64,000 nucleotides of DNA from an uncultured Gemmatimonadales bacterium. Its GTDB lineage: Bacteria; Gemmatimonadota; Gemmatimonadetes; Gemmatimonadales; GWC2-71-9. Of the stretch, positions 2,283 to 61,743 are shown one piece after another. The notes under the pieces are model-generated. The model saw nothing but the letters and a program-made list of their open reading frames with translations, had not been told where the DNA came from and ran no database searches. The stretch is taken from NCBI GenBank assembly GCA_963695555.1, contig CAVOGR010000007.1:256001-320000 (forward strand), in the 5' to 3' direction. A program made the position numbers and the translations under genes. Each line of letters starts with the position of its first letter. The first letter of the stretch is position 1.

Positions 2283-2385
2283 AAGGCGGAAAGAACTGAC
2301 GGCCGGTTGGGCGGGTGGGCGGCTCGGGGTCTTCTGCTGGGACCATCGAACCGCCGAACCGCCGATCCGCCGCTTGTCAGGAGTG
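2283..2385. repeat. Dispersed ~100-115 bp repeat, copy 1
   Basis: Near-identical to 6365-6479; core CTCGGGGTCTTCTGCTG(G/T)GACCATCGAACCGCCGA. Confidence 0.9.
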
Positions 2386-2527
2386 AGGAGTGAGGAGTGA
2401 GGGGTGGGGAGTGAATAGGGAGTGGGGAGGTGGGCAGCTGCCAAACCAAGGACTGCGGTTATAGGATGGATCACCACGACATGAGCTGATTCAGCTCGCT
2501 AGCTAGGTCGGCGACGCTTAGCGACGC

Positions 2528-3223
2528 ATGAGACTGACAATGTGCGGATACTATGTCGACAAACTATCGGGCCCGCGCCTCCGTCAATGCTACCAGATAG
2601 CACCGCCGCGCGTACAGCAGTACCTGGAAGCCGAGATTCAGTTTGTACTCGAACACCTCGAACCCCAAGACACTGTGCTGGAACTCGGGTGTGGATATGG
2701 TCGGGTAGCGGCGCGGCTCACGGAACCGGCTCGTCGTGTGGTTGGAATCGACACGTCTACCGAGAGCATAGCGCTAGCCCGCCAACTCTCGGGTGCCAAC
2801 CCGCGATGCGCGTTTCTGGTAATGGACGCGCTGACATTGGGATTCGACGAATCAATGTTTGACAAGGTCGTCTGCGTCCAGAACGGAATCTCTGCCTTCG
2901 GCGTGGACCAGGAGGCGCTATTGCTGGAAGCACTGCGGGTTGCCCGGCCGGGCGGCCAGGTCTTGTTCTCGACTTATTCAGAACGTTTCTGGGCGCATCG
3001 CCTCCAGTGGTTCGAGGCCCAGGCGGCCGTCGGCCTGATCGGAGCGATCGACTATAACAAGACGGGGAATGGGACAATCCTGTGTAAGGACGGCTTTCGC
3101 GCCGGCATCATGTCACCAGAAGCCTGGCACTCGCTCACGGCTGCTTTGGGGGTAGATGCCACCATCACCGAGATAGATGAATCGAGCGTCTGGTGTCAGA
3201 TTGCAGTGGGGAGTAGGGAGTAG
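2528..3223 (+). CDS. Class I SAM-dependent methyltransferase
   Basis: VLELGCGYG motif I, VGIDTS, FDKVVC, RVARPGG. Confidence 0.9.
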   Translation: MRLTMCGYYVDKLSGPRLRQCYQIAPPRVQQYLEAEIQFVLEHLEPQDTVLELGCGYGRVAARLTEPARRVVGIDTSTESIALARQLSGANPRCAFLVMDALTLGFDESMFDKVVCVQNGISAFGVDQEALLLEALRVARPGGQVLFSTYSERFWAHRLQWFEAQAAVGLIGAIDYNKTGNGTILCKDGFRAGIMSPEAWHSLTAALGVDATITEIDESSVWCQIAVGSRE

Positions 3224-3298
3224 GGAGTAGGGAGTGGGGAGGCGGAAAGGCAGAAAGTCTGAGAAGTCGGGAAGCGCTCGCAATGGAGGCATGCAGAC

Positions 3299-4816
3299 AT
3301 GAACCGACACGCGGCCGGTCTGGCCGGGCTCCTTGTGAGTCTATTCCTGTGCGCAACCCCCGCCCGCGCGCAGGCCACCATCGGCGGCGAGTGGCGGGAT
3401 GACGTGGCGGCGTTCGCGCGGCGGATCGTGGAGGCAGGCCTCACCCCAGGGATGGGAGTCGCAGTCTCCCAAGGGGACTGGGTCCTCTACTCGCAGGGCT
3501 TCGGCGTGGCCGACGCCTCCACGAGCAGGCCGGTCGATGAGGCAACAGGATTCTACATTGCCTCGACCACGAAGGCCCTGACCGCAACGGCAGTGGTGGT
3601 CGAGGCTACCAAGGGCACGATCGACCTGGACGCCCCGATCGACCGGTACGTTCCGGGCCTCACCTTCCGCGCCCCGATGGATGCGCACCGGGTGACCGTG
3701 AAGCAGTTCCTCACCATGACGGACGGGCTCGAAGACGGCGGACCGGTCGTGGTTCGGACCGCCTACACCGGCGACTTCACGATCCCGCTCCTCATTCGCC
3801 TCCTCGCCGGTTACGGGCCGGACCCGAACGGCACCGCGTTCTCCTACGACAACCTGCCCTACAACATCCTCGGCCTGGCCCTCGACCCGACTTCCGAGGA
3901 GGGTTGGAAGGACGCCGTGCGGCGGGACGTGCTCGATCCGCTCGGCATGCGGGAAACAAGCGCGCGTATCTCGTCGATGGACCCGGAGCGGATCGCGCTG
4001 CCCCACACGCTCGTTCCCGGCACGGGGTGGCGCCGAGCGCCGCTCGCCAAGGAGGACGCCAACCAACACGCGGCCGGAGGACACTTCGCCACCGCCCGGG
4101 ATCTAGCTCGCTTCGTCGCCGCCCACGCGAGCGGCGGCCTGCTCGAAGGACGGCGGGTGTTCCCGCGTGCCGCGATCGAGTCGACCCATGCCCAGCACGC
4201 CGTGCAGGACCGCGAGTTCGGCCCATACCACCGCTTCGGCTGGGGCTACGGCTGGGATCTTGGATCGTACGAGGGGAAGACCATCGTACACCGCTTCGGT
4301 GGGTTCACCGGCTATCGCAGCCACGTCTCGTTCGAGCCCGAGTCGGCGGTCGGCGTTGTCGTGCTGGTGAACGGCAGCGGCCCCGCCTCCGCGGCCGCGG
4401 ACCTGATGGCGACGTACATCTACGACCGGTTGCTCGGCCGCGTCGACTTGGCCCCAGAGTATGATCGGCGCCTCGCCGACCTCGACACGCGAACGGCGGA
4501 GCGCACCAAGGCGGCGGCCGACCACCTGGCCGAACGCGCCGCACGGATGGCACCCCTGCCCCACGCACTCGACGGCTACGCCGGCAGCTACCAGAACCCG
4601 AAATTCGGCGAGATGACGTGGCGGGTGGTGGCGGACGGGCTCGAGGTCAAGATGGGGGTGGCCGCAAGCCGTGCCGAAGTGTTCGACGCGGCGAAGGACC
4701 AGCTCCGGGTCGAGCTGTTCGGCGGAGGCAGTGTGGCGTCGTTCGAGTTCCCCGCGGGCGGTGGTCCGGCCACTGCGGTCACGATCCACGGGGAGCGATT
4801 CGAGCGGACATATTAG
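3299..4816 (+). CDS. Secreted serine hydrolase (class C beta-lactamase/S12 family) with C-terminal extension
   Basis: Signal peptide ending ARA; SxxK (ASTTK), FSYDN, AAGG, YGWD. Confidence 0.9.
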   Translation: MNRHAAGLAGLLVSLFLCATPARAQATIGGEWRDDVAAFARRIVEAGLTPGMGVAVSQGDWVLYSQGFGVADASTSRPVDEATGFYIASTTKALTATAVVVEATKGTIDLDAPIDRYVPGLTFRAPMDAHRVTVKQFLTMTDGLEDGGPVVVRTAYTGDFTIPLLIRLLAGYGPDPNGTAFSYDNLPYNILGLALDPTSEEGWKDAVRRDVLDPLGMRETSARISSMDPERIALPHTLVPGTGWRRAPLAKEDANQHAAGGHFATARDLARFVAAHASGGLLEGRRVFPRAAIESTHAQHAVQDREFGPYHRFGWGYGWDLGSYEGKTIVHRFGGFTGYRSHVSFEPESAVGVVVLVNGSGPASAAADLMATYIYDRLLGRVDLAPEYDRRLADLDTRTAERTKAAADHLAERAARMAPLPHALDGYAGSYQNPKFGEMTWRVVADGLEVKMGVAASRAEVFDAAKDQLRVELFGGGSVASFEFPAGGGPATAVTIHGERFERTY

Positions 4817-5089
4817 GCCAGCGCCGGTTTCATTAGCGATTCACCGTCTGCCACCAAGACTGCATCGAGGACTAGGGAATACCCTAGTGGACGTCCTCGT
4901 GCTGTTGACAGCGAATACCTCGCGCCGCAGTGTATGAACGAAGCGTCGCACGAGGGTACGACGATGAGAATGCGAGGGACCGAGTGGCGACCTGGTGACC
5001 AGTGCTCCGAGTCTGGCCGGGTTGCCGCTCGGTTTTTCCATTGTCTCGCCGCCTCATGAACACGTCACCATTTCGTAGGAGATACCACA

Positions 5090-6046
5090 ATGCCAAAGGC
5101 ACCAGAGGCCGAGTTTCTGACAATTGCCGCCATCCGGAAGCCGAAGGGCAGGCGTGAAACAGAATATCTATTCAACGAAAAGCAACGAATCTTCACCTTC
5201 CGGTCGAAATCGAAGACAGCGGCGGCAGCAGCGGAGCGGCTGAAGGAAGCCTTCGAGAAGAAGCGGCCGGTCAAGGCCCGGCTCGATTTGCGGAAGGGCT
5301 TCATTCGACGCATCTCCAAGCCGACGGCCAAGGAGCTGGGCCAGTTCGAGCGCAAGCGCACCTTCTTGGCGGACGCCGCGCGGCCGCGCCGGATCGAGGT
5401 CGCCAAGATCGATCCGACGACCTTCAACATCGTCGACCACTACCTCAAGCACCCGGTGTTTCGGCTCTGCCGCCGCGTGGTGCCGAGTTACAAGAGCGCC
5501 AAGAACATCTTCGACTTCTGCGCCAAACAATCGTGTCACTTGCCGGGACCGTACGACATCTCGCCGTGCATCCCGTTTCAGTACGTCCCGGACGGCTGTT
5601 ATGCACGGGCCCACAAGATGCGGTGGATCATCACCACCCGGTATCGCTACTGCTGCGACAAGGTGTTCAGCTTCGCCAACCAGGACGACGACTCCCTGGC
5701 GGTCCAGGCCAACAAGTGGGGCGGATGCTGTATCACCTGGTGGTATCACGTGGCGCCGCTGATCCGGGTGCGCATTCGGTTCTCCCGGCTGCGCAACCTG
5801 AGCGTGGTCCTCGCCATGGTGATCGACCCCAGCATGTTCGACAAGCCGGTGCTGCTCAGCACCTGGCTGTCGGCCCAGGAGAATACGGCCTGCCATCCCA
5901 ACGCCCACGTGTCGATGTACTCGATCCAGCCAGGATCGGCCTATTGGCCTGCCAGCTATGACGGCACCACGTTCGGCACCGATCCGACCTACACGTTGAC
6001 CGATGGGACACTCACCTCGTACCGGAACCTGGTGTCTTGTCCGTGA
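5090..6046 (+). CDS. Protein-glutamine glutaminase-like enzyme with N-terminal pro-domain
   Basis: CIPFQYVPDGCYARAHKMR (catalytic Cys), WWYHVA (His) and IDPS (Asp) match the Chryseobacterium protein glutaminase motifs as I recall them; RBS AGGAG upstream. Confidence 0.88.
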   Translation: MPKAPEAEFLTIAAIRKPKGRRETEYLFNEKQRIFTFRSKSKTAAAAAERLKEAFEKKRPVKARLDLRKGFIRRISKPTAKELGQFERKRTFLADAARPRRIEVAKIDPTTFNIVDHYLKHPVFRLCRRVVPSYKSAKNIFDFCAKQSCHLPGPYDISPCIPFQYVPDGCYARAHKMRWIITTRYRYCCDKVFSFANQDDDSLAVQANKWGGCCITWWYHVAPLIRVRIRFSRLRNLSVVLAMVIDPSMFDKPVLLSTWLSAQENTACHPNAHVSMYSIQPGSAYWPASYDGTTFGTDPTYTLTDGTLTSYRNLVSCP

Positions 6047-57929: not shown

Positions 57930-58797
57930 GACGCAGCCGTGCGGGAGCGAATGGCGAGGCAGAACGCGGAACCTCGAGCGAGAGAATCTCCCGCACCAGG
58001 ATCAGGTCGCTCAAGCGGTCCACGTCCACGGCGGCTTCGGCGAAGGGCAGCGGAATGGCCTGGACCCGGGCGCCGATCACCCGGGAAGCGCGTCGCATGG
58101 CGGAGTCCAGATCCAACAAGCGGAGTATGAAGAGGAGCAAGGCAAACGGGCCGAAGGCTCGGGCCAGCCGCCATGGCTTCTTCCGCAATTCCTCGACTCG
58201 GGTCCAGAATTCCGCCCCGCGCTTCGCCTCGGGAGTACGGAATACGAAGAGATTCGCTCCCGAGTACCTCTCCCCACGGAAGGGAATGTAGGTCCGCTTC
58301 GATTCGGGGAAGCGAGCGCGGACCCGCGATGCCGCAACCAGCCCGAACGCAAGGTCGGGCTCGCCTTGTTCCGCTCCCGCCAGGAAGCACTCGACCATCT
58401 CCGGCGTTAACAGCGCGTGGTCCGCGGTCGTGACCAGGAGCGGGGTGTCGGCGGGCATCGCGTTCAGGACCTGTAACACTCTCCGACTTGCCGACTGCTC
58501 ACCGTGGATGAGCTCGATGCTGCCGTCTGTTTCGAGACGTGCCAGATTGGGGAACCGGCGTAGCACGTCGGGAGCATCGGTGCTGACCAAAATTCGCTCG
58601 ATGCTCGACACGGTCCCCAGGGTGTCAGCGACGCGTTCGAGCATCGGTGCGCCGTGCACGTCGAGCAGCGCGCGATGAGGGGCGCCGGCTTCCTCGGCCA
58701 GCACATCGACGCCGTGGCGGCGGCCGGCCAGGATGAGGGCGGTGTAGCGGGGCTTGGGCTCGACAGGTTCGAGCGGGCTGTGCTGTTGCATGGTCAC
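57907..58797 (-). CDS. MobA-like NTP transferase family protein
   Basis: ALILAG, LVTTADHALL, YSGANLF, DVDRLSD. Confidence 0.85.
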   Translation of the reverse strand: MTMQQHSPLEPVEPKPRYTALILAGRRHGVDVLAEEAGAPHRALLDVHGAPMLERVADTLGTVSSIERILVSTDAPDVLRRFPNLARLETDGSIELIHGEQSASRRVLQVLNAMPADTPLLVTTADHALLTPEMVECFLAGAEQGEPDLAFGLVAASRVRARFPESKRTYIPFRGERYSGANLFVFRTPEAKRGAEFWTRVEELRKKPWRLARAFGPFALLLFILRLLDLDSAMRRASRVIGARVQAIPLPFAEAAVDVDRLSDLILVREILSLEVPRSASPFAPARLRHVAQHPS

Positions 58798-58879
58798 CTC
58801 CAGGCTACGTGCTGACTGATAGCTACGTGCCCGGCGTGACCTGGCCGTGACCCCATGCCACTACTCTGGAGCAGAAAGA

Positions 58880-58908
58880 GCCCCGAGCACCTCTATAGTG
58901 CTCGGGGC
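58880..58908 (-). terminator. Hairpin terminator after the protease/pro-domain pair
   Basis: GCCCCGAGCAC/GTGCTCGGGGC, followed on the minus strand by TCTTTCT. Confidence 0.75.
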
Positions 58909-58947
58909 CTCGTGGGACACCTCAATCGAGGGAAGATACCGTCAGTC

Positions 58948-59313
58948 TTACGGCTCGTGCGGGCGAAGCTCGCCCGTCACTTCCACCTCGACAGGAAAGC
59001 CGCGGAAGGCTTCGGGTATGTGAGAACGAAGCTCTGCGTCGTCGCGAGCGAGGTAGACCTTGATGCACGGGGTCTCCCCGCAGAGGCCGATGCCCGTCCC
59101 CACCACACCCGGCAGGGACATGACGCGTTCGGTCAGGGCTTCTTGTGCGGCGACGATCGTGGTGTCGACCATGGCACTCTCCTCTTCGAGGCCTGGTATC
59201 GTGCCTCGGCCCCCTCCCCCTCCGCCGGCACAGGCGGCGGCAACGCCAAGCGACGCCACCATGCAGCCCATGGCGACCACCCACCTGGAGCGAATCATCC
59301 TGGCTCTCCGCAT
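58948..59313 (-). CDS. Small lipoprotein that is a stand-alone copy of the upstream protease N-terminal domain
   Basis: AAAC lipobox; MSLPGVVGTGIG and PVEVEVTGEL match MGLPGVVGTAVG and PVEVMVTGEL in 59321-60436. Confidence 0.85.
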   Translation of the reverse strand: MRRARMIRSRWVVAMGCMVASLGVAAACAGGGGGGRGTIPGLEEESAMVDTTIVAAQEALTERVMSLPGVVGTGIGLCGETPCIKVYLARDDAELRSHIPEAFRGFPVEVEVTGELRPHEP

Positions 59314-59320
59314 CGTTCAC

Positions 59321-60436
59321 TCAGTTCCCGTCGATCGTCACTCCGAACCGGGTCAGCACCGGGTCGATCGGGTTGGCGATCGTTACCGACGAAGATCCGG
59401 CGTAGAGCAGGCCGACCGGCTTCCGGTCGTCGTTCTTGGCCCTGCCCTTGCCGTCGACCACGATCAACGAGCCCGAGTCCCCGCCGGCGCTAATGTTGGT
59501 GATGACGATCTGACCGGTGAAGCAGGCCACGCCCCTGTCGTAGCCGACGTTCACCGTCGCATTGACTGCGGTGATGTTTCCTTTGGTGAATCCCGTGGTC
59601 CGTCCGACCTTCATGACCTTCATGTTGACGGCCGGCGCGATCGTGGTGGACCTCGGCGTGCCGTAGCCGACCCCGGCGGGAGTCGAGTTCCCGACGAGGG
59701 CCGTGGTCGTTGCCGCAATGGCAGCGTCGATCACGTTTACGCAGGCCCCACTGAATACGATCGGTTCGTAGTCGGCCAGAGTGCCGATGTTGTCCGCCGG
59801 GCTCGAGCCGCCGTCGAAGGTGCCAGGCTGAATCAGGGCGTCTCCGACACTGGCTCGATTCTCATCGGCGTACACGTGGTTGTTGCTCAGGGCCCAGACG
59901 CTCGAGCCGTTGGTGACCCGCGCGCCGAGCGTGCCGGCCGTGATGGCTGGGTGGCCGGTCGAGACGCCAATGGGCACGGGACGGGGGTGCCGCTCGTCGA
60001 GGCCAGGTGGGGTGGGACCGGGGGGCGGACAGGGTGGGAGGTTCGGCTTGCCACAGGTCGGCTTGGCCTGTGGCGTCACCCGCTGCTGAAGCGCGACGAG
60101 TTCGCCGGTCACCATCACCTCGACCGGGACGCCGTCCAGTACCGTGGGCACGTTGGACAGGGCTTCCTTGGCGAGGATCTTGACCACGGGGCGGCCATTG
60201 GCGTTGAGGCCCACGGCGGTGCCGACCACACCGGGAAGCCCCATGAGGGCCTTGGTATGCCGCATCTGGACCGTGACGACCTGCTGACCTTGCGGGCTGG
60301 CGACGGAGAACTCGGGAACCGCGGGCTCCTGATCGGGCGCGGTGAACTCGCTCCGGCGGTCGGTGCAGGCGGACCAGAAGAGTCCGGCGACCAGCACCAG
60401 GCCGATCGACCACTTCATCCGATGGGTTGGCCTCAT
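59321..60436 (-). CDS. Trypsin-like (PA clan, Nal1-like) serine protease lipoprotein with N-terminal pro-domain
   Basis: WSAC lipobox; triad LSNNHV, IDAA, GDSGS; KVGRTTG.T.G. Confidence 0.9.
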   Translation of the reverse strand: MRPTHRMKWSIGLVLVAGLFWSACTDRRSEFTAPDQEPAVPEFSVASPQGQQVVTVQMRHTKALMGLPGVVGTAVGLNANGRPVVKILAKEALSNVPTVLDGVPVEVMVTGELVALQQRVTPQAKPTCGKPNLPPCPPPGPTPPGLDERHPRPVPIGVSTGHPAITAGTLGARVTNGSSVWALSNNHVYADENRASVGDALIQPGTFDGGSSPADNIGTLADYEPIVFSGACVNVIDAAIAATTTALVGNSTPAGVGYGTPRSTTIAPAVNMKVMKVGRTTGFTKGNITAVNATVNVGYDRGVACFTGQIVITNISAGGDSGSLIVVDGKGRAKNDDRKPVGLLYAGSSSVTIANPIDPVLTRFGVTIDGN

Positions 60437-60585
60437 GGGGGAATCCTTTGAGGGAGGAGGCGTACAGGGCGGGGTCGTTTGGAGAGAGTGAGGAATCCGC
60501 CAGCCGATGTCAATACCTCGCGTGGCTTGACCTTCGCTTGATTCCCTCCCCCGAGCCTGGGGGTGCACTCAACCAGGAGAACACC

Positions 60586-60756
60586 GTGCGACGCCGCTGG
60601 ATGATCCTGACCGCCCTGCTGCTGGCTACGAGCCAGACCGCCTGCGAAATCGATCTGACCGGAGTCGGGGAGATCCTGTGCGGGGCGGTCGCCTCGGGCA
60701 CCCGACACTTCCCGAACGAGCAGCCCAAGGCCAACGAGTGTTCCGCGAAACGATGA
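60586..60756 (+). CDS. Small putative lipoprotein (56 aa)
   Basis: AGGAGA RBS, GTG start, hydrophobic signal ending QTAC. Confidence 0.55.
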   Translation: MRRRWMILTALLLATSQTACEIDLTGVGEILCGAVASGTRHFPNEQPKANECSAKR

Positions 60757-60770
60757 GTATCCCAAAAGCA

Positions 60771-60808
60771 AGCCCCGGGACGGTCCCGCAGGGGACCGTC
60801 CCGGGGCT
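60771..60808. terminator. Hairpin between convergent genes
   Basis: AGCCCCGGGACGGTCCC/GGGACCGTCCCGGGGCT. Confidence 0.8.
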
Positions 60809-60820
60809 CGTTGGAGAAAG

Positions 60821-61297
60821 CTACTTCTTGAGGACGGTCTGCGACGTTCCCGCACCGCCGGTCACCGCCGACCAGTGCGATGCCCGGACCTTCCACTTGC
60901 CGCCTTCCTTGACGAAGACCTGGGTGACGCGGGTGAGGTAATTGCCCACTCCTGCCGAACCCTTGGGCTGCATCATTCCTTCCGAATAGTAGAGCGCCAC
61001 CGCGGCCTGACCCTCGACCAGCGGGATCACCTTGATGTGTTTGGCCGTGATGTTGATGGCGTCCCACTCGTCAGGCCTTCCGCTGGCCGGTATCTCGTTC
61101 AGGAGACCGCCGCTCGACCAGAATTCGAGCGCGCCCTGACTCGAGTAGCCATCCGGCCGGCTCATCAAGTTGGTGTTGACGTAGGCGTTCGCGTCGAGAA
61201 TGGTCTGCGTGACTTCCTTTTCGGTTTGCGATTGGCCGTGGGCCAGACTCGGGACAACGGCCAGTCCTGCAATCACCAGCGCGGCGACTACTTTCAT
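60821..61297 (-). CDS. Secreted NTF2-like (DUF4440/SnoaL) protein
   Basis: Signal ending AHG; TRVTQVFVKEGGKWKVRASHWS. Confidence 0.8.
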   Translation of the reverse strand: MKVVAALVIAGLAVVPSLAHGQSQTEKEVTQTILDANAYVNTNLMSRPDGYSSQGALEFWSSGGLLNEIPASGRPDEWDAINITAKHIKVIPLVEGQAAVALYYSEGMMQPKGSAGVGNYLTRVTQVFVKEGGKWKVRASHWSAVTGGAGTSQTVLKK

Positions 61298-61530: not shown

Positions 61531-61743
61531 ATGACGCAAGGCAGGTCTCAGGTCGGGCCACTGTGGATCGTGAGATGGCGCGAATGGCTGGGACTTCCCG
61601 ACCTCGGAATTCCCAAGATCAAGGTGAAGATCGATACGGGTGCGCACTCGTCCGCCCTGCATGCGTTCGACGTCCAGCAGTTCCGCCGCCATGGAAAGTC
61701 GATGCTCCGATTTCGGGTCCATCCGCTCGCCGCCGTGCAGTAG
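61531..61743 (+). pseudogene. Truncated RimK-associated retropepsin-like protease
   Basis: WREWLGLPDLGI..IKVKIDTGAHSSALHA..VQQF, stops after 70 aa. Confidence 0.75.

Follow-up and report, generated by a model that had tools for sequence, protein, structure and literature searches.

The window analyzed here, a stretch of 64,000 nucleotides (nt) from an uncultured Gemmatimonadales bacterium (contig CAVOGR010000007.1, positions 256,001 to 320,000), carries on its minus strand two adjacent genes that constitute a real, widespread and unstudied protease-partner module. The first gene (P0001, 59321..60436) encodes an S1 serine protease of 371 amino acids (aa) that resembles the rice protein NAL1. 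The second (P0002, 58948..59313) encodes a small protein, 121 aa in its long form, which is essentially a stand-alone copy of the N-terminal domain (N-domain) of the protease that arose by an ancient duplication. A few cysteine proteases and subtilases are known to have inhibitors that are encoded by a neighboring gene and copied from the prodomain of the enzyme itself. For NAL1- or S1E-like serine proteases, no partner of this kind was found in the literature searched, which was limited to open-access papers and preprints on the NAL1 structure and its bacterial relatives.

Layout and Conservation of the Gene Pair

The open reading frame (ORF) of the protease starts with MRPTHRMKW and its stop codon lies at 59321-59323. 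After a gap of 7 nt (59314..59320), the small gene begins with an ATG at 59311-59313 and runs for 121 codons plus a stop. A terminator scan revealed a single terminator-like hairpin 3' of the small gene (58879..58909, minus strand; a 13-bp stem with 9 G-C pairs and a loop of 5, then CTTTCTGCTC), the same stem was present in the RNA fold, and the minus-strand scan showed no terminator-like site between the two genes. An earlier reading of this window, made from its letters and ORF translations (hereafter the sequence-only reading), had described the 7-bp spacing and the common terminator, and both our coordinates and the hairpin scan agree with it. The protease and small gene probably form a two-gene operon.

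The two proteins share one domain. In a single BLASTP comparison, protease residues 53-113 aligned with small-protein residues 53-116 with 30/65 identical residues (46%) and E 2e-11, and the recurring motifs that were quoted in the sequence-only reading fall inside this alignment. When the whole 3.57-Mb assembly was searched, the domain was found at convincing E-values in these two genes only. The absence of a catalytic domain from the small protein, also claimed in that reading, was borne out, in that BLASTP aligned it to the protease N-domain only and P0002 had no Pfam match.

To determine how widely the pair is distributed, a genome collection was scanned with the protease, which yielded 30 loci (designated by L numbers), and small homologues were sought there by tblastn and with a jackhmmer profile. 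A small homologue was present in 25 of the 30 loci, directly downstream of the protease on the same strand in 24 and upstream on the other strand in one (L019). Two records (L035, L036) end at the protease and leave no room for a small gene. Such a check of synteny had been suggested from the sequence. By record label the pairs span eight phyla: Gemmatimonadota, Planctomycetota, Chloroflexota, Thermodesulfobacteriota, Pseudomonadota, Fibrobacterota, Deferribacterota, and Acidobacteriota; the label of one more record reads archaeon. The Pseudomonadota carrier is a cultured strain, Photobacterium obscurum SDRW27 (L022), which makes the pair directly testable. No third gene was common to the neighborhoods of the 30-locus set.

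Within a sample of Gemmatimonadota the domain was observed in 51 of 201 genomes (22 of 98 genera), and 49 of the 51 had at least two matches. A small-type match and an N-domain-type match lay within 4 kb of each other on one strand in 41 of these 51 genomes, as counted by eye from the table. In genus g65 the order of the genes is reversed, with the small gene first, and adjacency is retained. The small gene of one genome (G187) sits at the start of its contig.

A maximum-likelihood tree was constructed from 24 small domains and 30 N-domains, with the partial small ORFs of L030 and L032 left out and a midpoint root used for drawing only. The small domains and the N-domains were separated by one branch with 100/100 support. 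This single branch between the two kinds points to one old duplication and not to repeated recent ones. By the Nei-Gojobori method, the ratio of nonsynonymous to synonymous substitution rates (dN/dS) was 0.04-0.37 for the small domain (17 of 25 pairs unsaturated) and 0.12-0.26 for the protease (21 of 25 pairs), and the signal-plus-linker part of the small gene, at 0.29-1.43, showed almost free evolution. Purifying selection, together with a 100/100 branch of its own, indicates that the small gene is not a decaying duplicate. Decay and a lack of conserved homologues were among the outcomes that the sequence-only reading had named as counting against its proposal, and we found instead constraint on the small domain (0.04-0.37) and a large family.

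Three loci were of note for the state or number of their proteases. The proteases at L021:3869-4663 and L029:3929-4663 look truncated or decayed, and the downstream small gene is intact in both. These loci were considered as candidates for a protease that lacks its N-domain and is served by the small protein in trans, and they were rejected: the L021 frame has neither an N-domain nor a start codon before the linker, and the catalytic Asp of L029 is replaced by Gly. In L031, tandem NAL1-like protease paralogues (2385-3707 and 3929-4966), one of them with an FN3-like insert, are followed by a single small gene (5010-5327).

The Protease

The protease scored 39.2 bits with the model of the Pfam family Nal1_C (PF25819), above the gathering cut-off of 26.1 bits (E 5.8e-10), and 23 of 23 aligned relatives matched this family, too. 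No protease member matched Pfam NAL1_N (PF25608) at E<=0.01, and the protease matched nothing in NCBIfam. A search of PDB sequences returned rice NAL1 at E 7e-5, and alpha-lytic protease and the streptogrisins weakly. An AlphaFold2 (AF2) model was calculated from an alignment of 23 relatives, with a predicted local distance difference test score (pLDDT) of 84 and a predicted template modeling score (pTM) of 0.81. The pLDDT was 95-98 over residues 50-110 and fell below 50 over linker residues 119-139, which are predicted to be disordered.

Residues 47-371 of the model superposed on residues 91-446 of NAL1 as one body (Z 26.2, root-mean-square deviation (rmsd) 3.2, 284 residues, 22% identity). 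The N-domain of the protease (residues ~47-115, 60092..60298) has an alpha-beta-beta-alpha-beta order and, in the predicted model, lies against the catalytic domain in the same way as its NAL1 counterpart. Since the model superposes on the unit formed by the NAL1 ATP-binding domain (ABD) and protease domain, the shared N-domain is the counterpart of the NAL1 ABD (residues 89-172). The catalytic domain (residues 152-371, 59324..59983) was aligned to residues 1-198 of alpha-lytic protease and SGPB, and taken alone it matched the streptogrisin and alpha-lytic protease structures with Z 20-21 and rmsd 1.8-2.1. The residues His187, Asp237 and Ser321 were invariant in the 23 aligned relatives, with the GDSG serine motif at residues 319-322. 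The Nal1_C score, a triad placed in a predicted two-barrel fold, and the modeled packing of an ABD-type domain all identify the protease as a member of the NAL1-like family.

The likeness to rice NAL1 (PDB 8PMM, 8PN2, 7Y77) lies in the Nal1_C score and the one-body superposition, and it extends to the small protein, which in fold is closest to the NAL1 ABD. As a plant enzyme of the cytosol or nucleus, NAL1 differs in having an additional domain at its N-terminus, in binding ATP and in forming a hexameric cage (PMC12012508, in part). The protease described here, in contrast, is predicted to be an exported bacterial lipoprotein with a long Pro-rich linker. A free-standing ABD partner is not mentioned in the passages of the NAL1 report that were consulted (PMC12012508).

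The Pro/Cys-rich linker (residues 116-151, 59984..60091) had low pLDDT and comes after a G-E-[IF]-R-A-L motif that ends the N-domain, the same motif that lies near the end of the small protein. Within it, a conserved Cys stretch (60051-60071, residues ~122-136) has the form K-P-T-C-G-K-x-x-L-P-P-C-P, with two Cys, and is shared by the closer Gemmatimonadota orthologues (the window, L007, L008 and L011, not L009); other phyla are without it. Extra domains (fn3, Big_7, CarboxypepD_reg, CARDB and Big_13) were observed in the proteases of L018, L019, L020, L024-L027, L030, L032 and L034, where they sit between the N-domain and the catalytic domain or C-terminally. Protease frames of 1130-1310 aa occur in Gemmatimonadota genus g3.

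The sequence-only reading had treated the shared domain as a propeptide. As written, this is not supported, as the domain superposes together with the catalytic domain on the NAL1 unit, where it stays in the mature enzyme (PMC12012508, in part). Because FN3 and other inserts precede the catalytic domain in relatives, and given the NAL1 precedent, the N-domain need not be a disposable propeptide.

The Small Protein

The small protein belongs to no described family, and by profile searches its own family is large, has no model in Pfam and occurs across many phyla, most of them uncultured. The best NCBIfam match was at chance level (0.2), and a profile of the small family returned a single chance-level match among PDB sequences. 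PADLOC matched neither protein, and there was thus no sign of a known defense system. With a profile built from 33 small proteins, the number of representative clusters matched was 4,493 at E<=0.001; it fell to 1,632 at E<=1e-10 and to 15 at E<=1e-30, and protease N-domains are included in these counts. A profile seeded from the small protein retrieved small proteins and protease N-domains alike. Nearly all of the best 150 matches were proteins of 73-160 aa.

The AF2 model of the small protein had pLDDT 95-98 over residues 50-115, and its predicted topology comprises a helix (43-64), two strands (70-78 and 81-88), a short helix (93-98) and a last strand (106-112). The folded domain, which is the paralogue of the protease N-domain, spans residues 48-116 (58966..59172). 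Foldseek found nothing at E<=0.001 with this model, and a wide VIA search gave many alpha/beta sandwiches, all at Z<=6.0, among them a "prodomain-like protein" (4hlb, Z 4.4). When Foldseek's list was re-scored, the NAL1 ABD (8pmm_C, residues 89-172) came out on top with Z 6.4 and rmsd 2.6 over 66 residues. Next were structures of the pro region of alpha-lytic protease, namely 2pro_C (Z 5.8, rmsd 2.5, 72 residues), 4pro_D (Z 5.8) and 3pro_C (Z 5.6). All of these values fall in the range that the tool calls a common arrangement, yet two of the best-matching kinds of fold are domains that precede S1E-type catalytic domains.

Features particular to the small protein were counted in 141 representatives aligned to the profile, with eight tandem or chimeric forms left out. 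Residues Cys83 (133/141), Pro82 (123/141) and Ile84 (133/141) are conserved in small proteins only. Cys78 was kept in 95 of the 141, forming with Cys83 a C-x4-C pair around the beta1-beta2 turn, and protease N-domains are without this pair. In 134 of 142 sequences (the representatives plus P0002) the protein ends 0-6 residues past G-E-[IF]-R-A-L. In some proteins (P0020, P0021, P0022, P0069, P0085 and P0120), of which P0020, P0021 and P0022 are lipoproteins, a single signal peptide or lipobox is followed by two or three small domains in tandem, each with its own C-x4-C hairpin. A word-indexed search with P0002 gave no longer or fused relatives, which is weak evidence, and the representative search gave one apparent fusion to a truncated protease (P0026).

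Export Signals and a Candidate Internal Start

Lipoprotein signals cleaved by signal peptidase II have a basic N-terminus, a hydrophobic core and a lipobox that ends in Cys within about 35 residues. Judged by eye against this rule, both proteins begin with a signal of the lipoprotein type, having basic residues, a hydrophobic stretch and a Cys, as had been noted from the sequence. In the protease this is MRPTHRMKWSIGLVLVAGLFWSAC, with C24 closing a signal peptide of residues 1-24 (60365..60436) and a lipobox-like end ..LFWSAC; in the small protein it is MRRARMIRSRWVVAMGCMVASLGVAAAC, with C28 closing residues 1-28 (59230..59313) and the lipobox ..GVAAAC. The protease lipobox Cys is kept in four Gemmatimonadota orthologues (L007, L008, L009 and L011). 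Most relatives of the small protein have a lipobox-type N-terminus, even beside a protease with an ordinary signal peptide, and in Planctomycetota and other phyla the protease signal is of a non-lipoprotein kind and the small protein has the lipobox.

The Planctomycetota proteases begin with M-[ST]-R-R-x-[FL]-x-[KR] (e.g., MTRRIFCK, MSRRIFLR), which resembles the twin-arginine (Tat) motif. Such starts were observed at L013:532-1599, L015:1539-2582, L017:3893-4912, L020:3890-5491, L025:3893-5206, L027:3893-5209, L030:1308-2906 and L034:1842-3428. If the motif is real, the Planctomycetota protease would be exported already folded.

At five loci (L021, L023, L024, L025 and L040) the small frame yields only a signal-less protein of ~75-80 aa that starts at the first residue of the domain. 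The adjoining intact proteases of L023, L024, L025 and L040 have signal peptides; the L021 protease frame is truncated. The sequence-only reading had taken the small protein to be membrane-tethered, and these lineages, where a signal-less small protein stands beside an exported protease, do not fit a role that is purely tethered and extracytoplasmic.

The first residue of the domain is also a possible start codon in the long-form genes. In the window this is Met48, whose in-frame ATG (59170..59172) would give a signal-less form of 74 aa, and a Shine-Dalgarno (SD)-like GAGGAG (59179..59184) lies 6 nt 5' of it. The Met48 column has M in 79/141 and V in 31/141 sequences, with L and I not among the seven commonest residues and the flanking columns variable, and the V codon was GTG in 4/4 cases checked. 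An SD-like site 4-9 nt 5' of the in-frame ATG or GTG was observed in the window and at the same position in L007-L034 and L037-L041. In the window, the internal site forms an anti-SD duplex of -9.1 kcal/mol vs. -4.3 kcal/mol before the long-form start. Over the 17 nt 5' of the internal start, anti-SD pairing was beyond the same-gene 10th percentile in 9/17 long-form loci, and it was stronger than at the long-form start site in 16/17, although a Glu/Gly-rich linker alone would give purine-rich codons here. We read the small gene as encoding a real lipoprotein precursor and as also carrying a conserved candidate internal start, so that two isoforms are possible.

Proposed Role of the Small Protein

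We hypothesize that the protease has in the small protein a dedicated partner, which would dock on its protease domain and most likely act as a safeguard inhibitor, a proposal by analogy to which we give about an even chance of being correct. The first gene would produce an exported, lipid-anchored NAL1-family protease, in which a flexible linker joins an alpha/beta N-domain to an S1E-like catalytic domain. The other gene would produce the N-domain copy with features of its own, a beta1-beta2 hairpin stapled by Cys-x4-Cys and a C-terminus near G-E-[IF]-R-A-L. The small protein may dock on the protease domain at the surface that an N-domain uses, either the enzyme's own or that of a neighboring subunit as in the NAL1 trimer, and would restrain the protease until its release or assembly. 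Such a safeguard would cover the envelope of the producer and, where the small protein is signal-less, the cytoplasm. The proposal fits all three localizations of the small protein, which are lipoprotein, other signal and none.

Inhibition is favored in part by the known behavior of such N-terminal domains, since within its trimer the NAL1 ABD binds a protease domain in trans and action in trans is also known for the pro region of alpha-lytic protease. It is favored, too, by a genetic logic like that of Spi-SpeB, the staphostatins, Bfi and the potempins. In NAL1, the ABD stays in the enzyme, contacts the protease domain of the neighbor, buries 1,991 Å2 and builds the trimer (PMC12012508, in part). 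For alpha-lytic protease, the pro region is active whether supplied in cis or in trans (PMC2289522, in part). Such S1E pro regions (PDB 2PRO, 3PRO, 4PRO) are like the shared domain in being an alpha/beta domain N-terminal to an S1E-type catalytic domain, and their fold weakly resembles that of the small protein (Z 5.6-5.8, rmsd 2.5-3.8, 69-72 residues, within the range of common arrangements). Sequence similarity is not detectable, and the match spans the first half of the 166-residue pro region only. The natural pro region is made as part of the protease chain, from which it is cleaved and then degraded; the pair described here has a free-standing gene besides the fused copy. Going by the title of a 1992 report by Baker et al., the alpha-lytic protease pro region reportedly inhibits the mature enzyme.

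Pairs of similar genetic design are found among cysteine proteases. Spi is a propeptide analogue encoded beside SpeB, and the Spi-SpeB, staphostatin-staphopain and Bfi-Bfp pairs are like the present one in that a small, specific inhibitor gene adjoins the protease gene, with which it is co-transcribed in those systems; the Bfi proteins are predicted lipoproteins or periplasmic proteins for which a role in protecting the producer was proposed (PMC2873492, in part). These systems differ from the pair described here in that their enzymes are cysteine proteases, the folds are unrelated, Spi and the staphostatins are cytoplasmic, and the inhibitors are unrelated in sequence to the small protein. 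The potempins of Tannerella forsythia are lipoproteins of 98-132 residues whose genes adjoin those of secreted peptidases and which specifically inhibit the neighbor (PMC9890683, in part). Compared by description only, they differ in that their genes lie upstream of the peptidases and in that the text consulted does not present them as duplicates of a domain of the peptidase itself (PMC9890683).

The sequence-only reading had proposed a propeptide-like partner that acts in trans. A real, conserved and co-oriented partner gene, with a lipoprotein-type signal in most lineages, is supported, and action in trans has precedents (PMC2289522, PMC2873492, each in part); the propeptide status of the shared domain is the portion that is not supported.

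Several observations weigh against the inhibitor proposal. The pair is not obligatory, as L010, L012 and L014 are without a small gene despite 571-2683 nt of room downstream. Genomes G046, G149 and G112 have the two genes apart, with a larger protease (a frame of 571-1138 aa) encoded at a site distant from the small gene, and in G027, which is 99% complete, a divergent small gene was found and the protease query found no protease. The small genes of L013, L015, L027 and L034 differ by dS 0.26-0.47 and dN 0.04-0.08 vs. dS 1.2-2.0 and dN 0.20-0.30 for the adjoining proteases, so the small gene and protease have not simply co-diverged; recombination, or protease paralogues that share one kind of partner, could explain this mismatch. 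No sequence match of the small protein to any inhibitor or pro-region family was found in Pfam, NCBIfam or a PDB profile search; in Pfam, a pro-region family was absent from the matches of P0001 and P0002 at E<=1 and from those of 33 small proteins at E<=10. The fold matches to the pro region lie in the Z range (<8) that the tool calls a common arrangement, level with those to ribosomal protein S3 and ring-building motifs. Lastly, the NAL1 counterpart of the domain is a permanent assembly element and not an inhibitor (PMC12012508, in part).

That last point bears on the strongest of the alternatives, which we consider unlikely: the small protein would be an assembly or anchoring subunit that replaces the N-domain of a neighbor, forms or caps a hetero-oligomer, and tethers soluble proteases by its lipid anchor. 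The homologous domain of NAL1 makes the inter-subunit contact of the trimer (PMC12012508, in part), our protease model retains the NAL1 domain arrangement, and the tandem forms with two or three copies could suit an oligomer. Anchoring in particular would agree with the pairing of a non-lipoprotein protease with a lipobox-bearing small protein in Planctomycetota and other phyla. However, both proteins have lipoboxes in the window and in other Gemmatimonadota loci, so an anchor would be unnecessary there, and the signal-less small proteins of L021, L023, L024, L025 and L040 cannot anchor anything outside the cytoplasm.

It is improbable that adjacency is only the historical trace of a tandem duplication and that the small protein has an unrelated function or is itself a substrate. 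The unlinked and orphan copies (G046, G149, G112 and G027) and the discordant divergence in one Planctomycetota group favor this reading, but adjacency and orientation are kept in 24/30 loci over eight phyla and adjacency outlasts the reversal of gene order in g65. Furthermore, both kinds of match occur in 49 of the 51 domain-bearing Gemmatimonadota genomes, and an intact small gene stands beside a decayed protease only rarely (L021, L029).

Similarly low is the probability we assign to a foldase role, in which the small protein would act in trans after export on a kinetically trapped S1E-like catalytic domain. The catalytic domain is nearest to the alpha-lytic protease and streptogrisin group (Z 20-21), members of which need their pro region in cis or in trans (PMC2289522, in part), and the fold of the small protein resembles that pro region (Z 5.6-5.8). 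The title of PDB 1boq has the C-terminus of the pro region contacting the active site, and the small protein has a C-terminus fixed just past GE[IF]RAL (0-6 residues in 134/142). On the other hand, the similarity to the pro region is weak, all of the proteases but those of L021 and L029 keep their fused N-domain, so that a second foldase looks redundant, and signal-less small proteins could not meet a signal-bearing protease after its export. The last alternative, a pseudogene formed by partial duplication of the 5' end of the protease gene, would agree with the short span of the small gene, which covers no more than the first third of the protease, and with its lack of an annotated family, and it is already refuted by the dN/dS of 0.04-0.37, the 4,493 clusters, the separate 100/100 clan, the residues conserved in small proteins only (Cys83, Pro82 and Ile84) and the confident fold.

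A broader proposal, which joins several of these points and is more tentative than inhibition itself, is that one frame gives both a lipoprotein and a 74-aa cytoplasmic form, an N-domain mimic that could guard the protease in the cytoplasm as well as outside it, with lineages that lost the signal keeping the cytoplasmic guard only. As part of the same proposal, the NAL1 "ATP-binding domain" would be a retained descendant of an S1E pro region, of which bacteria kept a detachable copy as a regulator. If the small protein is a tight and specific binder of the protease domain, it would offer a natural means of control over enzymes of this class and a way to test the job of the ABD-like domain in NAL1, a rice yield gene. 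The pair would in that case also be a possible example of one gene that gives a lipoprotein and a cytoplasmic isoform.

Flanking Genes and Transcript Data

The flanking genes, for an NTP-transferase-like protein, a permease, MscS and CorA, are unrelated to the pair. A scan of 58600-60900 showed no sigma-70-like promoter site, a result that is uninformative for this phylum. Four sequencing runs had matches to the pair. The X9 metatranscriptome run, from an estuary, gave a single contig of 233 nt, 99% alike, over 59675-59902 inside the protease gene, and the other three were DNA contigs of estuary and sediment metagenomes that cover other parts. The X9 contig establishes neither transcription of the pair nor the ends of a transcript. 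On the plus strand, an ORF of 70 aa at 61531-61743 was observed to match only the first 53 of the 138 positions of Pfam Zn_protease (PF05618), with E 1e-10, and may represent either a fragment of a gene or a wrongly called frame.

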